A DNA stretch of 27,321 nt from NCBI GenBank assembly GCA_903953145.1, contig CAJBIL010000077.1, forward strand, positions 1-27,321. The letters run 5' to 3'. Positions 19,516-27,321 of the stretch are shown here, piece after piece. The notes below the pieces were generated by a model. That model saw nothing but the letters and a program-made list of their open reading frames with translations. It ran no database searches and was not told the origin of the DNA. Each line of letters starts with the position of its first letter. The first letter of the stretch is position 1. The DNA is from an uncultured beta proteobacterium. GTDB lineage: Bacteria; Pseudomonadota; Gammaproteobacteria; Burkholderiales; Rhodocyclaceae. Made by a program: the position numbers and the translations under genes.

Positions 19516-20817
19516 TTAGGCGAAGCTGTCTTCCATCAAGGTGTTAAACCACTTGATCATTTCTTTGTAGTTGTCCTGTGAGCGTGCTGCCGCTTCTCCC
19601 GCTGCACCTGGTACCGGTTGCATCGTGCGGCTCACCGGGTCATAAGCAAAAACAGCGGTCAGCCACGAGGCCGTATCTGCCGTGATCGGTGAATAGCAGG
19701 CCGAATTAGTGATTGGCGACGGATCCGGGCTGCGTCCGGCGAGCAGGCGAACAATGGCGTCGGCACAGATTTTTGCTTCCTGGTTGGCGATATGCCCAGC
19801 CTTGGGTTGCGTTGTTGCAGAAGCATCACCAATGACATGAATACCAGGTGCAGCAGTGGACTGATAGGTCAGTACATCAACGCCCGCCCAGCGCCCGCCG
19901 ACATTGGCCAGACCGTTATCGATAACAACCTTTCCGGCCTTGTGTGCTGGAATGGCGTTGATTACGTTAGCTTTGATACTGCCAAGGTTGGAATTCAGCG
20001 TCATCGTGCTGGCATCAATGCTGCTGATGCTGACTCCCGGGTGATATTCGATAACGCCCTTGTGCACCACCTCGAAAGCGTTGGTAAAGGCCAGCGGCTC
20101 GGCGGTAATGCCGGGATTCGCATCAAGCACGATCACCTTGGAACCTGCACGATTCTTCTTCAGCCAGTCGGCAACGACACAAGCGCGCTCATAAGGTCCC
20201 GGTGGGCAGCGATAGGGCTTGGCCGGAATGGTCATGGCAAAGACGCCGCCGGGTTTCATGGCGAGCAACTGGTTGCGCAGTTGGGTGGTCTGTGTTCCGG
20301 CCTTCCAGGCATGCAGCACCCTGGCTTGGGCAGCTGGTGTTTCCAGCCCGGCGATGGTGTCGAAATCGATGCCGGGCGCCACGACCAGACGGTCATAAGG
20401 CAACTTGCTACCATCAGCCAGACTAACGCTGTGGCCAACCGGATCAATCGCACTGACGTCGCCTTTAACCAGGCGAATACCATAGCGGGTCGCCAGATTG
20501 CTGTAGCCGAACTGCAGCGACGTCATGCTGCGTTGGCCGCTGAGCACCAGATTGCTGAGAATGTTTGAGTTATAGGCAGTTTCGCGCTCAATCAGAGTGA
20601 CAGAGACGCCAGTACCACCCCAAAGACGGAGATATTTGGCTACCGTGGCGCCAGCCATGCCGCCGCCAATCACGACGACGCGGCCACTAATGCCGGTGTT
20701 GGTTGGAACAGTGCCCAGTTGTGCGGGGGTTGCGGCGTTTACCAGGCCAGTCAAACCGGCAGTTGAGGCGCCTATGCCGGCCATACTGGCCAGACGGAAA
20801 AAATCACGACGATTCAT
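19516..20817 (-). CDS. fccB: Flavocytochrome c sulfide dehydrogenase flavoprotein subunit (FccB/SoxF family), Tat-exported
   Basis: Twin-arginine signal NRRDFFR; FAD motif VVVIGGGMAGATVAKY; YRCPPGPYERA; HVIGDA; PKAGHIAN; NSACYS; GAGGA RBS. Confidence 0.88.
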   Translation of the reverse strand: MNRRDFFRLASMAGIGASTAGLTGLVNAATPAQLGTVPTNTGISGRVVVIGGGMAGATVAKYLRLWGGTGVSVTLIERETAYNSNILSNLVLSGQRSMTSLQFGYSNLATRYGIRLVKGDVSAIDPVGHSVSLADGSKLPYDRLVVAPGIDFDTIAGLETPAAQARVLHAWKAGTQTTQLRNQLLAMKPGGVFAMTIPAKPYRCPPGPYERACVVADWLKKNRAGSKVIVLDANPGITAEPLAFTNAFEVVHKGVIEYHPGVSISSIDASTMTLNSNLGSIKANVINAIPAHKAGKVVIDNGLANVGGRWAGVDVLTYQSTAAPGIHVIGDASATTQPKAGHIANQEAKICADAIVRLLAGRSPDPSPITNSACYSPITADTASWLTAVFAYDPVSRTMQPVPGAAGEAAARSQDNYKEMIKWFNTLMEDSFA

Positions 20818-20837
20818 GATGTGGTCCTCGTTATCAG

Positions 20838-21158
20838 TTAGCGTTGTTTGGACAGGTAGTCCGCGATCAGGCGGATTTGTGCATCCGAGTAGCCTCGCGC
20901 ATGCATGTCCATCATTTTTGGCGGCACTTTGCTGCGCATCTCGCGTAGTTCGTTATAAATCTCGGATGATGATGAGCCGGCGAGTCGCTCAAAACCGATA
21001 TTTGATTTTCCATTGTTGCCATGGCACTGAAAGCAGTTCGAGGCCAATAGGCGACCTGCGGGTGGGGCTGCCGACGTTGTTTGAGCCGTAACGCAGGTGC
21101 TGGCCAGGGCGAACGGGAGCCAGAGCAAGACCCGCAAGCGCATTGTTTTTTGATTCAT
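20838..21158 (-). CDS. fccA: Monoheme c-type cytochrome, FccA-like subunit (106 aa)
   Basis: Sec signal, single CFQCH heme motif, distal MMDMHARG. ATG 21158 has a GGAGG RBS; the longer ORF-track start (21332) overlaps the divergent kinase. Confidence 0.85.
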   Translation of the reverse strand: MNQKTMRLRVLLWLPFALASTCVTAQTTSAAPPAGRLLASNCFQCHGNNGKSNIGFERLAGSSSSEIYNELREMRSKVPPKMMDMHARGYSDAQIRLIADYLSKQR

Positions 21159-21261
21159 GATGAACCTCCGAAGTTGTTTCAAGGTTTGATTGACTGCTTT
21201 TGCAAGACTCCTGGCCGGACTTGCAGGTCGAATATTCGTCGTTCGCAATATTTCTGACAGC

Positions 21262-21279
21262 TGTCGTCTACACCCGACA
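21262..21279. promoter_or_regulatory. GlrR(QseF)-type binding site TGTC-N10-GACA
   Basis: Exact TGTC-gtctacaccc-GACA in the fccA/glrK intergenic region, with an extra GACA half-site at 21256-21259; matches the motif described for enterobacterial GlrR. Confidence 0.55.
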
Positions 21280-21307
21280 CTTTTGTTGGCGCACGGTCTG
21301 GCATACG

Positions 21308-22753
21308 ATGGCGGCCATGAAACGTTATCCACGCTCCTTTCTGCAGCTGATCACCTTCGGCCATATCCTGTTTGCGCTCCCTTTGTTGATCGCATCGGGC
21401 TATGTTTTTTTCACGCTGCAAGTCCTCAACAGCCACTACCGGGCCGCTATTGAACACGCCTCGGTTTCTTCGCGCTTAAGTGGCGAGCTGGAGGAGGATC
21501 TTCTGCACATGGAGCGCAACCTGCGTCGATATGTCGTGCTGAAGGACGCAGAGTCGCTGAATGATTACGTGGCGGTGCGTACGGAATGGCAAGGGCATGT
21601 CGGTACCTTTTCCCGACTCTCGCCTTTGCCTGAACAAATCCTCAATGAGATCCAAGCCCAGTTAGCGCTTGAAAATGATGCTTTTGTCGTGCTGAGAGAC
21701 ACGGGTAGCTCACAGCGTTTGCAAGGGGTTATCGACGAACTCAAGCTGCGATCACAGAACTCGCTTGACGAGGCCAGACTGATCATGGAAAGCCAGCAGG
21801 AGCAATTCCTCAAGGACTCGGATGCCTTGAGTACCCGCCTCATGCTGGCAGCGGGCAGTTCCGTCCTAATTGCCTTTTGCTGTTTATGGGCAATCAGAAA
21901 ACTGCTGGCGCGTCTTATTGGTCGTTTTGAGCGGGCTTTGCTCCGATTGGGCAAAGGGGATTTGCAACAAGCAATCGAACTTGATGGACCCGGTGATTTG
22001 CGCTGGCTCGGACGTTGGCTGGAATGGCTTAGAAAACGCTTGCTCTCGCTTGAAGAAGGCCGCGCTCAAGTATTACGCCATGTTTCACATGAGTTAAAGA
22101 CACCGTTGGCCGCGATGCATGAGGGCGCTTCTCTGCTGGCGGAAGAGATTTCCGGCCCATTGACGCCTGACCAAAGACGGATCGTTAGCATATTGCAGAG
22201 CAATTCAAGGCGCTTGCAGGATCTCATTGAAGGATTGCTCCGCCTGCAACAGGCGGGGCATGCGGCAGAGCGCATTGGTTTTGAAGTCGTGCGTTTTGAT
22301 TTGACGATTGAGCAGGTGCTTGAAACCTGCCGTCTGATTGCCGGTGAACGACGCATTCAGTTTCAGTGCGTGCATTCTGAAACTGAGATCGTTGCAGGGC
22401 GAGAAGCACTGATGACCATCGTCCATAATTTGCTATCAAACGCCATCAAGTTCTCACCTGATGGTGGCTGTGTTTCCATCGCCCTTGTCCAGGATGGCGA
22501 AAAGGTCATATTCGATGTCATTGATCAGGGCGCAGGTGTCCCTGAGACGGATAAATTACAAATATTTGAACCGTTCTATCGTAGCGCTGCTTCCCGCCAC
22601 GTTGCCGGCATCGGCCTGGGTCTCGCAATTGCTCGCGAATTCGTGCTGGCACATCGCGGTGAACTTTTGCTCATAGATTCACCAACTGGCGCGCATTTTC
22701 GAGTTGTTTTGCCTTTGTCCGCGCCTTATTTGAGAATTCAACCGGATGTTTAA
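21308..22753 (+). CDS. glrK: GlrK/QseE-like sensor histidine kinase
   Basis: Two TMs; HAMP ending GPGDLRWLGRWLEWLRKRL; H-box HVSHELKTPLAAMHEGASLLAEEISGPLTPDQ, close to the GlrK-type SHELKTPL..EG..LL....GPLTPEQ; NLLSNAIKFSP; DQGAG; GIGLGL. Start is ATG 21308 or 21317. Confidence 0.85.
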   Translation: MAAMKRYPRSFLQLITFGHILFALPLLIASGYVFFTLQVLNSHYRAAIEHASVSSRLSGELEEDLLHMERNLRRYVVLKDAESLNDYVAVRTEWQGHVGTFSRLSPLPEQILNEIQAQLALENDAFVVLRDTGSSQRLQGVIDELKLRSQNSLDEARLIMESQQEQFLKDSDALSTRLMLAAGSSVLIAFCCLWAIRKLLARLIGRFERALLRLGKGDLQQAIELDGPGDLRWLGRWLEWLRKRLLSLEEGRAQVLRHVSHELKTPLAAMHEGASLLAEEISGPLTPDQRRIVSILQSNSRRLQDLIEGLLRLQQAGHAAERIGFEVVRFDLTIEQVLETCRLIAGERRIQFQCVHSETEIVAGREALMTIVHNLLSNAIKFSPDGGCVSIALVQDGEKVIFDVIDQGAGVPETDKLQIFEPFYRSAASRHVAGIGLGLAIAREFVLAHRGELLLIDSPTGAHFRVVLPLSAPYLRIQPDV

Positions 22754-22762
22754 CTCTTCGCC

Positions 22763-23077
22763 ATGTTAAAAAATATCGTGTTATTTGCGGCTGTTTTAGC
22801 TTTGAGCGGTTGTGCCTCAAACAACGCTAAGCAAGCCGATCAAGTCATCGTTTTTGAGCCGGCACCGGGCAACCCGCGTTCAGCCCTTGATGTCCAGAAA
22901 ATTGCCGAGTTGGAAAAGCAGCTTGCTGAGCGGCAACGTCAATGTCAGGCAGAAAAACGTCGTTTAGAACTCGCCCTTAAAGACAATCAGAAACAGAGTG
23001 ATGAACTACAGAAGAAACTTGATTCGCTCTTGGCCATTGACCGTGAGCTTCGGGGTCGGGCAAAAGTAGCTAAATGA
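22763..23077 (+). CDS. Small lipoprotein, minimal QseG(YfhG)-like
   Basis: Lipobox LSGC; C-terminal coiled coil ending ELQKKLDSLLAIDREL, similar to the QseG tail (RKLENLTDIERQL as I recall it); lies between glrK and glrR. Confidence 0.7.
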   Translation: MLKNIVLFAAVLALSGCASNNAKQADQVIVFEPAPGNPRSALDVQKIAELEKQLAERQRQCQAEKRRLELALKDNQKQSDELQKKLDSLLAIDRELRGRAKVAK

Positions 23078-24411
23078 GTGATGGCGCAAAAATTCTGATC
23101 GTCGATGACGATCTGGATATGCTGCACCTGATGGGCATGAGACTCAGTGCAGCCGGCTATCAGGTTAGTTCGGCAGAATCAGGCGAAGCCGCATTAATCA
23201 GTTTTCACCGCAATCGTCCGCAAGTTGTGGTTACTGATTTGCGCATGGGCGAGATGGACGGGTTGGCGTTATTCGAGCATTTGCAGGCCAAAGCGCCGAC
23301 CATGCCCGTTATCATTTTGACCGCCCACGGCACGATACCGGATGCAGTTGCTGCAACCCGGCGTGGCGTTTTTAGTTTCTTGACCAAGCCGTTTGATGGT
23401 CAGGAACTTTTGCGCCGAGTCGCCGATGCCATAAGGCTTTCCCCGACGCTGGACCCTGAGCAGAGTTCCGCGCATTGGCGAAAAGACTTAATCACCTCCA
23501 GTGTGCGTATGGAAGACTTGCTGCGTCAGGCTTTGCGCATCAGTGAAGAGAACACTAGCGCACTCCTGGTCGGGCCCAAAGGATCAGGCAAGACCACTTT
23601 GGTGCACGCAATTCAGCAGGCCGGAAAACGGCCAAATGGACCGTTTGTATGCTTGTCGTGTACAGATTTCCCGGCAGCAACTCTCGTAGAAATGTTGTCA
23701 CCAGCCAGTGCTGATAACGCATATACCCAGTCAGCCGGCGGCATGCTTTATTTAAAAGACATCGGCGCCTTGTCTCTCATCGCGCAAGCCCGCCTTTTTT
23801 CTGTGCTCTTTGCTCAGATGCAGGCCAAAGACCCTTTGAGCCGGCTTAAGTCGGGCACGCAGCAGAGTAGCGTTCCCGATGTGCAAATTATTGCTTCAAG
23901 TCCCCGGCCACTTGATTCGGCTGTCGCAGAGGGTGAGTTTCGCAGCGATCTCTTTTATTTGTTGAGTCGGATGACTCTGTTAATTCCGCCGTTAAGCGAG
24001 CGTAGTGAAGACATCCCCCCACTTGTGCAACATTTCCTGTTTCAAATTCAACCCAATGCAAATCTCTCCCTTGCCCCGGAGGCGCTGGCGGCTTTGTTGG
24101 ATGGACGCTGGCCCGGAAACGTACGGCAATTAAAGAATGTTCTGGAGCAGGCTTCCAAAATGAATCTGACGCCAATAATCACTGAATCTTCAATTCGGCG
24201 GGTAATGCGAGATCTCGAAGAGGACGATCTCGCTGCCTTTGATGATGCTCGCCGCGAATTTGAGCGGGATTATCTTTTGCGATTGCTCCAGATAACTGCC
24301 GGCAATGTTTCGCAAGCGGCGCGGGTGGCGCAGCGCAACCGGACTGAGTTCTACAAGCTACTGGCTCGGCACGGGCTTGATCCCATAAGTTTCAAACAAA
24401 AATTTCGGTAA
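23074..24411 (+). CDS. glrR: GlrR/QseF-like response regulator with degenerate AAA+ domain (REC-AAA+-Fis HTH)
   Basis: REC DLRMGEMDG..VIILTAHGTIPDAVAAT..GVFSFLTKP and HTH LLQITAGNVSQAARVAQRNRTEFYKLL closely match GlrR; WPGNVRQL is retained; GAFTGA is absent. Confidence 0.87.
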   Translation: MSDGAKILIVDDDLDMLHLMGMRLSAAGYQVSSAESGEAALISFHRNRPQVVVTDLRMGEMDGLALFEHLQAKAPTMPVIILTAHGTIPDAVAATRRGVFSFLTKPFDGQELLRRVADAIRLSPTLDPEQSSAHWRKDLITSSVRMEDLLRQALRISEENTSALLVGPKGSGKTTLVHAIQQAGKRPNGPFVCLSCTDFPAATLVEMLSPASADNAYTQSAGGMLYLKDIGALSLIAQARLFSVLFAQMQAKDPLSRLKSGTQQSSVPDVQIIASSPRPLDSAVAEGEFRSDLFYLLSRMTLLIPPLSERSEDIPPLVQHFLFQIQPNANLSLAPEALAALLDGRWPGNVRQLKNVLEQASKMNLTPIITESSIRRVMRDLEEDDLAAFDDARREFERDYLLRLLQITAGNVSQAARVAQRNRTEFYKLLARHGLDPISFKQKFR

Positions 24412-24415
24412 TTGC

Positions 24416-25771
24416 CTAATTCAAGTCTGTGGATTGAGGCATCACTTGCCGGTAAAGTCGAAGGTAGCGTTCGTCGGCTTGTTTCAGGCGTTCGGTAGCC
24501 AACCGGAAAAATATCTGTAGCATTTTGGATTGCAGTGCGGGAGATGCTTCACGAAGACGTGCGTAGGCCCATTTGCCAATCGTGCTTTCAGTTGCTGCGA
24601 CCACGGTGGCGGCACGCGGTGAGGGCTGCTCTTCAGCAAAAGCGAGTTCGCCGAATAGCGTTCCGGTATCCAGCAGGGCGATTAATTTTCCTTGTTGCAG
24701 TACACGGGCTTCGCCTTTGAGCAGGAGATAGCATGAGCGTGCGTTTCCACCTTCTCGCAAAAACACGGTTTTTGTCGGGACTTTTCGCCACTGAGAGATG
24801 CGTAGCAGCTCCCACAATTGGGCGTCGTTGAGCGAATTGAGCAAAGGCAGATGGCGTAGCTGATCATAAAGTTCGGCTTCGGCCGGGCGTTCTTCAGCGG
24901 ATGACTGTGCGATGGATGCACTGGCGCAGTGGGCGGTCAGTGCCGAAAGTACGGCCGGCCAGTTGGCGAAGCGATCTTCGAGGTTGCGCGCCAGCATCTT
25001 GTCGAGTAACGGATTGAGGCTCTCCGGTAGATCGGGACGGAAACTGGTCAACTGCTTTCGTTCTCCGTGCAAAATTTTATACATCAGCGATGCCTGATCG
25101 GGCGCATCAAAAAGATGTTTGCCAGTTAGCAGTTGATGCATGACAACGCCGAGTGCATAAATGTCGGCTTGTGGCGTTACCCATTGGCGAAATAGCTCGG
25201 GCGCCATGAAGGCCAGTGAGCCAATATCCATCACCTGGGTCGATGATTCATCGCGTGACCAGTACGCCGCACCGAAATCGCAGACTTTCGCTTCGCCGGG
25301 TCCGACGTACTGTAGATTGGCGGGTTTGATATCGCGATGGACGATGCCGGCGCGGCAGGCATAATCAAGCGCGCTGGCGCATTTGTAGGCGATCTCCAGG
25401 ACCTCGGTAATGGGCTTCAGGTTGTCTGGCGTTGTATAAGGCTCGAGTGTGCCATTGGGTAGATATTCCATGACCAGGTAGGCGGTATCGTCGCCAAAAC
25501 CAGCATCGAATACCTCGACGATATAAGGATGGTGGAGGCTGCCCGCCATGTGTACTTCGTTTAGCCAGGCTTTGCGTACAAGGGCTTGGTCCGGGTCTTT
25601 ACGGAATATCTGCGGATGTGCGACCTTGAGCGCCACTTCGCGTTGCGCGAAGGTGTCCCAACCGAGAAAAACGGTCCCTGTCGCGCCACGCCCGAGTTCA
25701 CCGCGCACTTCGTAGCGCTGGCTGAGTCCGGCGGGAAGCTTTATTTCGGATGGCGTTTTTTTGTCTGACAT
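24416..25771 (-). CDS. Hanks-type Ser/Thr protein kinase with C-terminal cyclic-nucleotide-binding domain
   Basis: LGRGATGTV, VALK, HRDIKPAN, DFG, APE, DIYALG; CNB domain FLREG..LLKGEARV..LFGELAF..PRAATVVA. Start is ATG 25771 or 25804. Confidence 0.92.
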   Translation of the reverse strand: MSDKKTPSEIKLPAGLSQRYEVRGELGRGATGTVFLGWDTFAQREVALKVAHPQIFRKDPDQALVRKAWLNEVHMAGSLHHPYIVEVFDAGFGDDTAYLVMEYLPNGTLEPYTTPDNLKPITEVLEIAYKCASALDYACRAGIVHRDIKPANLQYVGPGEAKVCDFGAAYWSRDESSTQVMDIGSLAFMAPELFRQWVTPQADIYALGVVMHQLLTGKHLFDAPDQASLMYKILHGERKQLTSFRPDLPESLNPLLDKMLARNLEDRFANWPAVLSALTAHCASASIAQSSAEERPAEAELYDQLRHLPLLNSLNDAQLWELLRISQWRKVPTKTVFLREGGNARSCYLLLKGEARVLQQGKLIALLDTGTLFGELAFAEEQPSPRAATVVAATESTIGKWAYARLREASPALQSKMLQIFFRLATERLKQADERYLRLYRQVMPQSTDLN

Positions 25772-25842
25772 TTCGTTAGCGCACCGTAAGTTTTCCAGTG
25801 CCATGTTAGCGAAATGATTGACGCTTGCGTAGCAAGCTTGAT

Positions 25843-25907: not shown

Positions 25908-25941
25908 TAGGCACCTTTCTGTGATTAATAGAGGCGCTTTG

Positions 25942-26943
25942 ATGAACAAACTGTCGCGTAGGCTTGCTGTTGCCCTGATTGCTGCAACTTTCTCTTTGCC
26001 AGTATTTGCCGAAGGTAGTTTGCTCAACGTTTCTTACGATGTAGCGCGCGACTTTTACAAGGATTACAACCCGATGTTCCAGAAATACTGGACAGCCAAA
26101 TCGGGCGAGAGTATCGAGCTGAAGCAATCGCACGCGGGGTCGAGCAAGCAGGTGCGTGCCGTAGCCGACGGGCTGGAGGCGGATGTGGTGACGATGAATC
26201 AGGCGTCCGACGTTGATTTTCTGGCAGACAAAGGCCTGGTCGCCAAGGATTACGCAAAGAAATTCCCGACCAATGCGTCGCCCTATACCTCGACGATGGT
26301 TTTTATCGTCCGCAAGGGCAACCCGAAAGCGATCAAGGACTGGGGCGATCTTGCACAGCCCGGCATGCAGGTGATTTTGCCGCATCCGAAAAGCACCGGT
26401 AACGGGCGTTACAGCTATCTGGCTGCCTGGGGCTATGCGCTCAAGCAGCCAAACGGCAATGATAAAAGTGCGCAGGAGTTTGTTGGCAAGGTATTGAAAA
26501 ATGCCCCGCTGTTTGCCGCCGGTGGTCGTGATGCGACGACTACTTTTATGCAGCGCAAGATCGGTGATGTTCTGGTTTCGTTTGAGAGCGAAGCCGAGCT
26601 GATTGCCCGCGAATTCGGCAAGGGCGAGTTTGAAGTCGTCTATCCGTCGTTGTCGATTCTCACCGAATTCCCGGTGGCCATTGTTGATAAGGTGGTCGAC
26701 AAGAAAGGCACGCGCAAACAGGCGCAGGCTTATCTTGATTACCTGTGGTCAAAAGAGGGGCAGGAGAATGCCGCGCAAAACTACCTGCGTCCGCGTGATG
26801 CCGACTTGCTTAAAAAATACGCAGCACAGTTTCCTGTGATCAAGACATTTACGGTTGATGAAGTCTTTGGCGGCTGGAGTAAGGCCTTTCCTGCGCACTT
26901 TAAGGATGGCGGCAGTTTCGACCAGATTTATTCACAGAAGTAA
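25942..26943 (+). CDS. sbp: Sulfate/thiosulfate ABC transporter substrate-binding protein
   Basis: Signal peptide ending VFA; LLNVSYDVAR, QSHAGSSKQ, SPYTSTMVFIVRKGNPKAIKDWGDL, PKSTGNGRY, GGRDATTTF, GDVLVSFESEA, HFKDGGSFDQIY. ATG 25942 preferred over GTG 25921. Confidence 0.95.
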   Translation: MNKLSRRLAVALIAATFSLPVFAEGSLLNVSYDVARDFYKDYNPMFQKYWTAKSGESIELKQSHAGSSKQVRAVADGLEADVVTMNQASDVDFLADKGLVAKDYAKKFPTNASPYTSTMVFIVRKGNPKAIKDWGDLAQPGMQVILPHPKSTGNGRYSYLAAWGYALKQPNGNDKSAQEFVGKVLKNAPLFAAGGRDATTTFMQRKIGDVLVSFESEAELIAREFGKGEFEVVYPSLSILTEFPVAIVDKVVDKKGTRKQAQAYLDYLWSKEGQENAAQNYLRPRDADLLKKYAAQFPVIKTFTVDEVFGGWSKAFPAHFKDGGSFDQIYSQK

Positions 26944-26989: not shown

Positions 26990-27015
26990 ATTGATTGAGA
27001 TCGATTGAATCACTG

Positions 27016-27321
27016 ATGGTTGCTGCGCTTTTTAATCACCGTCGCTCGCGTGTCCTGCCCGGGTTTAGTCTCGGGCTTGGCTACACGCTGGTCTATCTTT
27101 CGATCCTGATTTTGTTGCCGCTCTCCGGGCTGATCTTCAAGGCCAGTTCGTTGAGTTTCGCAGAGTTTTGGGATATTGCGACCGGCGCACGGGCGCTTGC
27201 TTCTTATCGCGTGACATTCGGGGCGTCGCTGCTGGCGGCGGGGATCAATGCTTTTTTTGGGCTGATCGTCGCCTGGATTCTGGTGCGCTACAGCTTTCCC
27301 GGTAAACGGTTTGTTGATGCG
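27016..27321 (+). CDS. cysT: Sulfate ABC transporter permease CysT (CysU), 3'-truncated by the window edge; missing from the ORF track
   Basis: My translation from ATG 27016: MVAALFNHRRSRVLPGFSLGLGYTLVYLSILILLPLSGL..ALASYRVTFGASLLAAGINAFFGLIVAWILVRYSFPGKRFVDA, the typical CysT N-terminus; open to the end of the window. Confidence 0.93.
   Translation, partial: MVAALFNHRRSRVLPGFSLGLGYTLVYLSILILLPLSGLIFKASSLSFAEFWDIATGARALASYRVTFGASLLAAGINAFFGLIVAWILVRYSFPGKRFVDA

Follow-up and report, generated by a model that had tools for sequence, protein, structure and literature searches.

Can a response regulator of the sigma-54 activator type shed the parts that act on sigma-54 and still regulate transcription? 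This question is raised by a gene in a 27,321-nucleotide stretch of an uncultured beta proteobacterium of the Rhodocyclaceae (GenBank assembly GCA_903953145.1, contig CAJBIL010000077.1, positions 1 to 27,321 of the forward strand; hereafter the window). Its open reading frame (23074-24411, plus strand) is uninterrupted and encodes a 445-residue protein of the enhancer-binding protein (EBP) group, related to GlrR, also known as QseF. An earlier note, made from the letters of the DNA, had proposed a sigma-54-independent offshoot of GlrR in which the AAA+ domain serves only as an oligomerization scaffold. Here we conclude that the gene probably specifies a working, phosphorylation-controlled DNA-binding response regulator that descends from GlrR and no longer acts on sigma-54, with a conserved box nearby as its predicted site of action. 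By its sequence the regulator is intact and conserved, and it probably controls the adjoining sulfide-dehydrogenase genes together with its own operon. The sigma-54-independent offshoot of the earlier note, as opposed to a pseudogene, is supported by the alignments, a structural model, the clade, the rates of substitution and a GlrR box that lacks an accompanying -24/-12 promoter; the scaffold part of the proposal may be too narrow, as detailed below.

What exactly has been lost? As reference we used GlrR of E. coli K-12 (L010:3470-4804:-), taken from the fetched glrK-qseG-glrR locus. The two proteins align end to end at 41% identity (BLASTP), with a 10-residue gap in the regulator exactly over ESELFGHARGAFTGA, the E. 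coli segment that carries ESELFGH and GAFTGA. E. coli GlrR has 35 residues from the cysteine to the GG pair, compared with 25 between C196 and G222 of the regulator (TDFPAATLVEMLSPASADNAYTQSA). The GlrR sequence that the earlier note had used was accurate, as gap and residue counts match the fetched protein, and the strings it quoted (GPKGSGKT, LYLKDIG, FRSDLFYLL, WPGNVRQL) are all present at their coordinates. The alignment shows no equivalent of the GAFTGA loop in the regulator. Further along, LYLKDIG is paired with LFLDEIG of E. coli (codons of K228 and D229 at 23755-23760), FRSDLFYLL with FREDLYYRL, and IIASSPRPL with IISATHRDL. An alignment of 36 sequences shows the same losses: L1 loop, Walker B acid pair, arginine finger and sensor I asparagine.

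Profile searches point the same way. The regulator matches the Pfam families Response_reg (101.5 bits), Sigma54_activat (PF00158; 80 bits, above the cut-off of 20.2), AAA_lid_14 and, weakly, HTH_8. Sigma54_activat reaches 246.8 bits in E. coli GlrR, 234 bits in another EBP encoded by the regulator's genome and 240 bits in a canonical betaproteobacterial GlrR-like protein, whereas the receiver scores of the regulator and these intact EBPs are alike (e.g. 101.5 and 110.3 bits). The top-scoring NCBIfam family is GlrR/QseF (NF011695), with 382.4 bits against a cut-off of 763, followed by NtrX (NF051870; 242.8 bits, under its cut-off of 600) and NtrC (238 bits).

Structure prediction agrees with the alignments. 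In an AlphaFold2 model of the regulator, built on a 118-row alignment (mean predicted local distance difference test score 84.7), the stretch that joins helix 201-207 to the Walker B strand consists of no more than an 8-residue loop and one short helix, and the L1 hairpin is missing. A Foldseek search with the full-length model returned Brucella NtrX (5m7n/o/p) first and NtrC1 second, and also matched VpsR. Isolated AAA+ domains of NtrC1, PspF and FleQ were matched at a target template modeling (TM) score of ~0.8, which indicates that the AAA+ fold is retained in the model.

Which parts remain? In an alignment of 118 sequences the receiver shows no variation at the phospho-acceptor D55 or at D12, T83 and K105, and D11 is at least 90% conserved. 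Equally invariant are G167, G170, G172 and K173 of Walker A and most of the helix-turn-helix (HTH) domain. As read from the sequence, nothing is missing from the receiver or the GlrR-type HTH, whereas the L1 loop has been deleted and other residues stand in place of the Walker B acids, arginine finger and sensor I asparagine. Activation of sigma-54 needs ATP hydrolysis. We infer that the AAA+ domain of the regulator can neither hydrolyze ATP nor contact sigma-54; it may still bind nucleotide and mediate oligomerization, because Walker A is kept. To call it a mere oligomerization scaffold is perhaps too narrow, since Walker A is invariant in the 118 sequences and an insertion in the L2 region is conserved: the domain may retain the ability to bind nucleotide, or offer a new surface for contacts.

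Are these changes peculiar to one strain? A large protein search retrieved more than 100 full-length homologues, 51-90% identical, the named ones from Azonexus, Ferribacterium and other Rhodocyclales metagenome-assembled genomes (MAGs). We placed the regulator in a maximum-likelihood tree of 98 rows (quick search, support by the SH-like approximate likelihood ratio test, SH-aLRT). Twenty clade members group together at SH-aLRT 100, nested within a 53-row group, likewise at SH-aLRT 100, to which E. coli GlrR and canonical GlrR-like proteins belong. Outside this GlrR group fall three EBPs from the regulator's own genome. Loss of the loop and motifs defines the clade: in an alignment of its members, GAFTGA and arginine finger are absent from all 20. 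The Walker B D-E pair is kept in an outer subclade only (P0112, P0116, P0121, P0122). Members of the inner subclade have K/Q/E/R-D at this position, together with an 8-residue L2 insertion (AQMQAxDPLxRL) with a conserved DPLxRL. The order of loss, as it can be read across these living lineages, would place L1 and arginine finger before Walker B.

The 53-row GlrR group also includes several further GAFTGA-less lineages. We did not use a tally of independent GAFTGA losses (15 changes), as the strict G[AS]F[TS]GA expression scores inexact rows as losses and the backbone of the tree is a polytomy. One cluster, P0126, comprises 88 protein sequences of the cultivable genus Aeromonas, with an L1 deletion of ~10 residues and no GAFTGA; Walker B (LFLDEI) and arginine finger are kept. 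The Aeromonas protein is annotated as GlrR or 'sigma 54-interacting regulator'.

Selection was measured as the ratio of nonsynonymous to synonymous substitution rates (dN/dS) against relatives 85-89% identical, in four close comparisons; those with relatives at 58-78% identity were rejected for saturation of synonymous sites. Values were 0.04-0.12 for AAA+, ~0.05 for the receiver and 0.015-0.05 for the HTH, and the L2 region stood at ~0.05 in two of the four comparisons. The degenerate AAA+ domain changes at two to three times the rate of its neighbors, yet is clearly constrained. Purifying selection and the more than 100 homologues make pseudogenization, or changes private to this strain, very unlikely.

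The clade is unevenly distributed. The source MAG (574 contigs, 79.5% complete) carries rpoN, as well as five or more EBPs in which GAFTGA, DE pair and arginine finger are all intact; no canonical paralogue of the GlrR group was found in its assembled 79.5%, and the next-best EBP lies outside that group. In three of the four other species of the genus the best match is a canonical GAFTGA protein at 47-49% identity, and the fourth has no match. The nearest homologues (78-90%) come from MAGs, the named ones assigned to Azonexus or to unclassified Pseudomonadota. Among the loci read in a 150-genome sample of the family, seven copies lack both GAFTGA and arginine finger (50-52% identity) and 19 are canonical, with GAF[ST]GA (45-50%). 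With canonical or missing genes in the genus and a mixed sample in the family, the inner-clade operon is therefore patchy. The contig (G000:C77) may have been horizontally transferred or mis-binned, and the reading of the gene is unaffected either way.

Where might the regulator bind? The published GlrR box consensus is TGTC-N10-GACA (PMC3045617), a pattern that in our hands recovers all three known boxes upstream of E. coli glmY. Its only exact match in the window lies in the divergent intergenic region before the operon, 38 nt upstream of the kinase ATG and with its center ~111 nt from the fccA ATG. Across six loci, with protein identity as low as 58%, TGTCGT and CCCGACA do not vary, in a region that averages 78% column identity; the outer-subclade locus has the box with one mismatch, followed, as here, by a TAGGAT-type element. 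The pattern is under-represented in the 2.82-Mb assembly, with 17 matches against ~40 expected from base composition, and from these figures the chance expectation is ~0.001 per 157 bp. A search for a wider regulon left no further target to propose: each of the other 16 matches in the assembly falls within a stop-to-stop frame of 150 amino acids or more, and the four of them that have the extended form TGTCG-N8-CGACA fall within frames of 357-1527 amino acids. The box at 21262-21279 is the sole intergenic one among the 17.

A sigma-54 promoter was sought in the same region. No TGGCAC-N5-TTGCW with up to two mismatches occurs in the intergenic 21159-21316, and the same scan detects the sigma-54 promoter of E. 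coli glmY. Nor is there a conserved GG-N10-GC in the alignment of the six intergenic regions. On visual inspection, a sigma-54 element is suggested by CTGGCCGGACTTGCA on the plus strand and by its reverse complement; they were discarded, with GG-to-GC spacings of 8 and 11 nt instead of 10 that vary between loci. A conserved TAnGAT before the kinase ATG may be a promoter element, which is a guess from reading by hand, and a nearby GGCGG could equally be a ribosome-binding site. Two further intergenic blocks are conserved, CCTGGCCG at 21210-21217, which does not vary among six loci, and, at 21229-21238, a palindrome resembling CGAATATTCG; they may be promoter elements or the site of a second regulator. 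At gathering thresholds, Rfam gave no RNA family in the window, hence no GlmY or GlmZ.

The regulator is the last gene of a three-gene operon, preceded by a GlrK-like kinase and a small lipoprotein (Table 1). The true start of the kinase is the ATG at 21317, as the GlrK alignment begins at MKRYPRS. The stop codon of the lipoprotein gene overlaps the start of the regulator (ATGA), and in relatives a gene of 55-113 amino acids is called at its place. Pfam and NCBIfam gave nothing specific for the lipoprotein. Homology to QseG is not supported: BLASTP aligned only the signal peptide's region (E 0.014), with a brief likeness at the C terminus, and we treat the protein as a positional analogue.

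Table 1. Regulator, its parts, the operon and the intergenic box, with positions in the window.
Feature	Position	Strand	Evidence
Response regulator, 445 aa: receiver (REC), degenerate EBP-type AAA+, GlrR-type HTH	23074..24411	+	Pfam, NCBIfam, BLASTP against E. coli GlrR
Receiver domain, residues 7-116	23092..23421	+	Pfam PF00072, 101.5 bits; invariant columns
Walker A GPKGSGKT, residues 167-174, retained	23572..23595	+	Invariant positions in 118 sequences
L1 remnant, residues 197-221; 10 residues fewer than E. coli GlrR; without ESELFG and GAFTGA	23662..23736	+	Alignments, AlphaFold2 model
Walker B remnant MLYLKDIG; K228 D229 replace D-E	23743..23766	+	Alignments
L2 / pre-sensor I region with clade-specific 8-residue insertion (FAQMQAKDPLSRL...), then sensor I SSP (against ATN/ATH)	23800..23883	+	Alignments
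FRSDLFYLL, residues 289-297; arginine-finger position (YRL in canonical EBPs) is Leu296	23938..23964	+	Alignments
GlrR-type HTH; recognition segment RNRTEFYKLL same as E. coli GlrR	24241..24396	+	BLASTP, invariant columns
GlrK-like sensor histidine kinase, HAMP-HisKA-HATPase_c	21317..22753	+	32% identity to E. coli GlrK over full length; Pfam
104-aa lipoprotein (lipobox LSGC, coiled coil) in QseG position	22763..23077	+	Open reading frame, lipobox; gene position
Small c-type cytochrome (FccA-like), divergent, probable target	20838..21158	-	Pfam PF00034/PF13442; synteny
Flavoprotein of flavocytochrome c sulfide dehydrogenase (FCSD) type (FccB-like), probable target	19516..20817	-	Pfam FCSD_central 117.6 bits, FCSD-flav_bind; synteny
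Exact GlrR-type box TGTCGTCTACACCCGACA (TGTC-N10-GACA) in 157-bp divergent intergenic region	21262..21279	.	Pattern search; conservation

The divergent fccAB-like arrangement recurs at all inner-clade loci fetched (including L011, L012, L014, L048 and L049), at 58-89% identity, and the genes downstream of the regulator vary among relatives. NCBIfam matches of the FCSD-type flavoprotein are all far under their cut-offs, with 103 bits for type III sulfide:quinone oxidoreductase (cut-off 525) and 52 bits for a pyridine nucleotide-disulfide oxidoreductase family; its substrate may differ from that of classical FccB. Convergent with the regulator, 24416-25804 (minus strand) encodes a Ser/Thr kinase domain and a C-terminal cyclic-nucleotide-binding domain (Pkinase 149.5 bits, cNMP_binding 48 bits), a gene not seen at the matching position in the five relatives whose downstream genes were examined. 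Further on lie a sulfate/thiosulfate ATP-binding cassette substrate-binding protein (25921-26943, plus strand; TIGR00971, 424 bits) and a membrane protein, possibly its permease (26995-27321, plus strand). These sulfur-assimilation genes stand near an fccAB-linked regulator, and the loci of relatives differ at that downstream position.

How could such a regulator operate? The GlrK-like kinase, probably aided by the small lipoprotein, would phosphorylate D55. The phosphorylated dimer would then bind the single box between its own operon and the fccAB-like genes and, by means of the DNA specificity of ancestral GlrR, modulate sigma-70-type promoters in front of its own operon, fccAB or both. Models for this type of promoter control would be NtrX, VpsR and the GAFTGA-less NtrC proteins. 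Lying 38 nt before the kinase ATG, the box would suit autorepression or class II-type activation, from a promoter with the conserved TAnGAT just before the start; the ~111 nt between its center and the fccA ATG would suit activation of fccAB.

A more ambitious version of this mechanism is possible, though we hold it only tentatively. In Azonexus/Ferribacterium-type Rhodocyclales, the GlrK/QseG/GlrR envelope-sensing module might have become a switch that depends on sigma-70 and governs the oxidation of sulfide in the periplasm (fccAB). The dead AAA+ domain would then be a nucleotide-binding oligomerization module and the L2 insertion (AQMQAxDPLxRL) a new contact to RNA polymerase, with L1 and arginine finger lost before Walker B.

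Several points weigh against a GlrR descendant that has left sigma-54 for its box and sigma-70-type promoters. The outer subclade retains the DE pair of Walker B, and some of its members might turn over ATP. There is one box here, compared to the three used by E. coli GlrR. A simple sigma-70 scan of 20800-24700 gave no hits and no clear -35/-10 pair. The link to fccAB is one of synteny only and is absent at the outer-subclade locus L013. Finally, binding of the box, the sign of regulation and independence of rpoN are all features that we infer for the clade.

Could the regulator instead have no promoter role at all? It might act on proteins, as a phosphate sink for the kinase or as a poison subunit in mixed, inactive rings with a canonical GlrR-like paralogue. 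The retained AAA+ fold and Walker A would fit such a role, and some genomes of the family (e.g. G092 and G048) have a GAFTGA-less copy (50-52%) and a second match at ~45%, with motifs read in the GAFTGA-less copies only. Yet the HTH, at dN/dS 0.015-0.05, is better conserved than the rest of the protein, and the neighboring intergenic region keeps a matching box; a sink or poison would need neither, and the assembled 79.5% of the MAG yielded no canonical GlrR-group paralogue to be poisoned. We consider this explanation improbable.

Still less credit is due to the idea that the protein remains a sigma-54 activator, reaching sigma-54 through some non-canonical surface, for example the new L2 insertion. 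Its Sigma54_activat score is above the Pfam cut-off (80 against 20.2 bits), the genome has rpoN, and databases name relatives 'sigma 54-interacting'. ATP hydrolysis is obligatory for such activation, however, and here L1 is deleted and the Walker B acids, arginine finger and sensor I asparagine are gone; in addition, no -24/-12 element was found in the conserved intergenic region, and the characterized GAFTGA-less EBPs are all sigma-54-independent (PMC6158489, PMC3162934). A decaying relic, or an assembly artefact private to this MAG, is already refuted in practice: the MAG is fragmented (574 contigs, 79.5% complete) and the gene is absent from the other four species of the genus (three with a canonical GAFTGA best match at 47-49%, one with none), but the reading frame is uninterrupted, the same architecture and length occur in more than 100 homologues drawn from many samples, dN/dS is far under 1 in all domains, and operon and box are conserved.

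What does a GlrR-descended regulator that no longer acts on sigma-54 add? With an EBP-type AAA+ domain that lacks the GAFTGA loop, the regulator falls among the atypical EBPs. These are an established concept, and a specialist will be interested rather than surprised. Our searches of the literature on GAFTGA in connection with GlrR, QseF and flavocytochrome c yielded no description of a GAFTGA-less GlrR/QseF lineage. An earlier genome survey excluded GAFTGA-defective homologues from its counts of sigma-54 activators (PMC3162934); its supplementary file of defective GAFTGA sequences holds no Dechloromonas, and the Aeromonas entries shown there are a different protein. The present locus contributes a visible order of loss, a conserved box and a candidate target. 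Since several lineages of the GlrR group have degenerate sigma-54 machinery, the Aeromonas cluster included, the family would be a convenient natural series from EBP ATPase to ordinary transcription factor. Databases name the regulator and its relatives 'sigma 54-interacting' or "GlrR", and regulon predictions that treat it as a sigma-54 activator would be wrong. Through its conserved pairing with fccAB it becomes a testable candidate regulator of sulfide oxidation in Rhodocyclales; we found no regulator of sulfide oxidation described for this order, in literature searches that were aimed at GAFTGA loss and not at fccAB regulation.

How does the regulator compare with known systems? Like E. 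coli GlrR (QseF/YfhA), it has the REC-AAA+-HTH layout, the gene order kinase, lipoprotein, regulator, the RNRTEFYKLL segment and a TGTC-N10-GACA box upstream of the kinase gene, and both fall in the same group of the tree. Unlike E. coli GlrR, it has no GAFTGA loop, Walker B DE pair, arginine finger or sensor I asparagine, and scores half of the NCBIfam GlrR cut-off; its locus has one box instead of three, no sigma-54 promoter that we could find, and fccAB rather than glmY as neighbor. Among solved structures, NtrX of Brucella abortus (PDB 5m7n/5m7o/5m7p; ~30% identity) is the best match in sequence and fold. It too is a response regulator of REC-AAA+-HTH layout in which L1 is shortened and GAFTGA missing, and it is described as an atypical EBP and a repressor of its own promoter (PMC6158489). 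In contrast to the regulator, NtrX keeps Walker B (LYLDEV) and arginine finger (FREDLFHRL); moreover, the kinase of our locus is GlrK-like, not NtrY-like, and the tree puts the regulator with GlrR.

VpsR of Vibrio cholerae (PDB 7v2b; 24% identity), listed with TyrR, PhhR, HupR, HsfA and NtrX among the atypical EBPs, works with sigma-70 RNA polymerase and does so from a site that lies shortly before the -35 region (PMC6158489). Like the regulator, which it matches in structure, it lacks GAFTGA and has a degenerate Walker B (ND in VpsR, KD here), but it is controlled by cyclic di-GMP and has no dedicated kinase, whereas the regulator has an invariant phospho-acceptor pocket and a co-transcribed cognate kinase. 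The GAFTGA-less NtrC proteins of Rhodobacter capsulatus and Caulobacter crescentus show the same kind of lineage-wide L1 deletion in an otherwise orthologous two-component EBP. They act at sigma-70 promoters in a phosphorylation-dependent manner; R. capsulatus NtrC is reported to need ATP binding for its activity, and Caulobacter NtrC is predicted to need both binding and hydrolysis (bioRxiv 10.1101/2023.06.06.543975). The regulator differs from them in that its hydrolysis residues are gone, and in that they belong to another EBP subfamily, NtrC and not GlrR.

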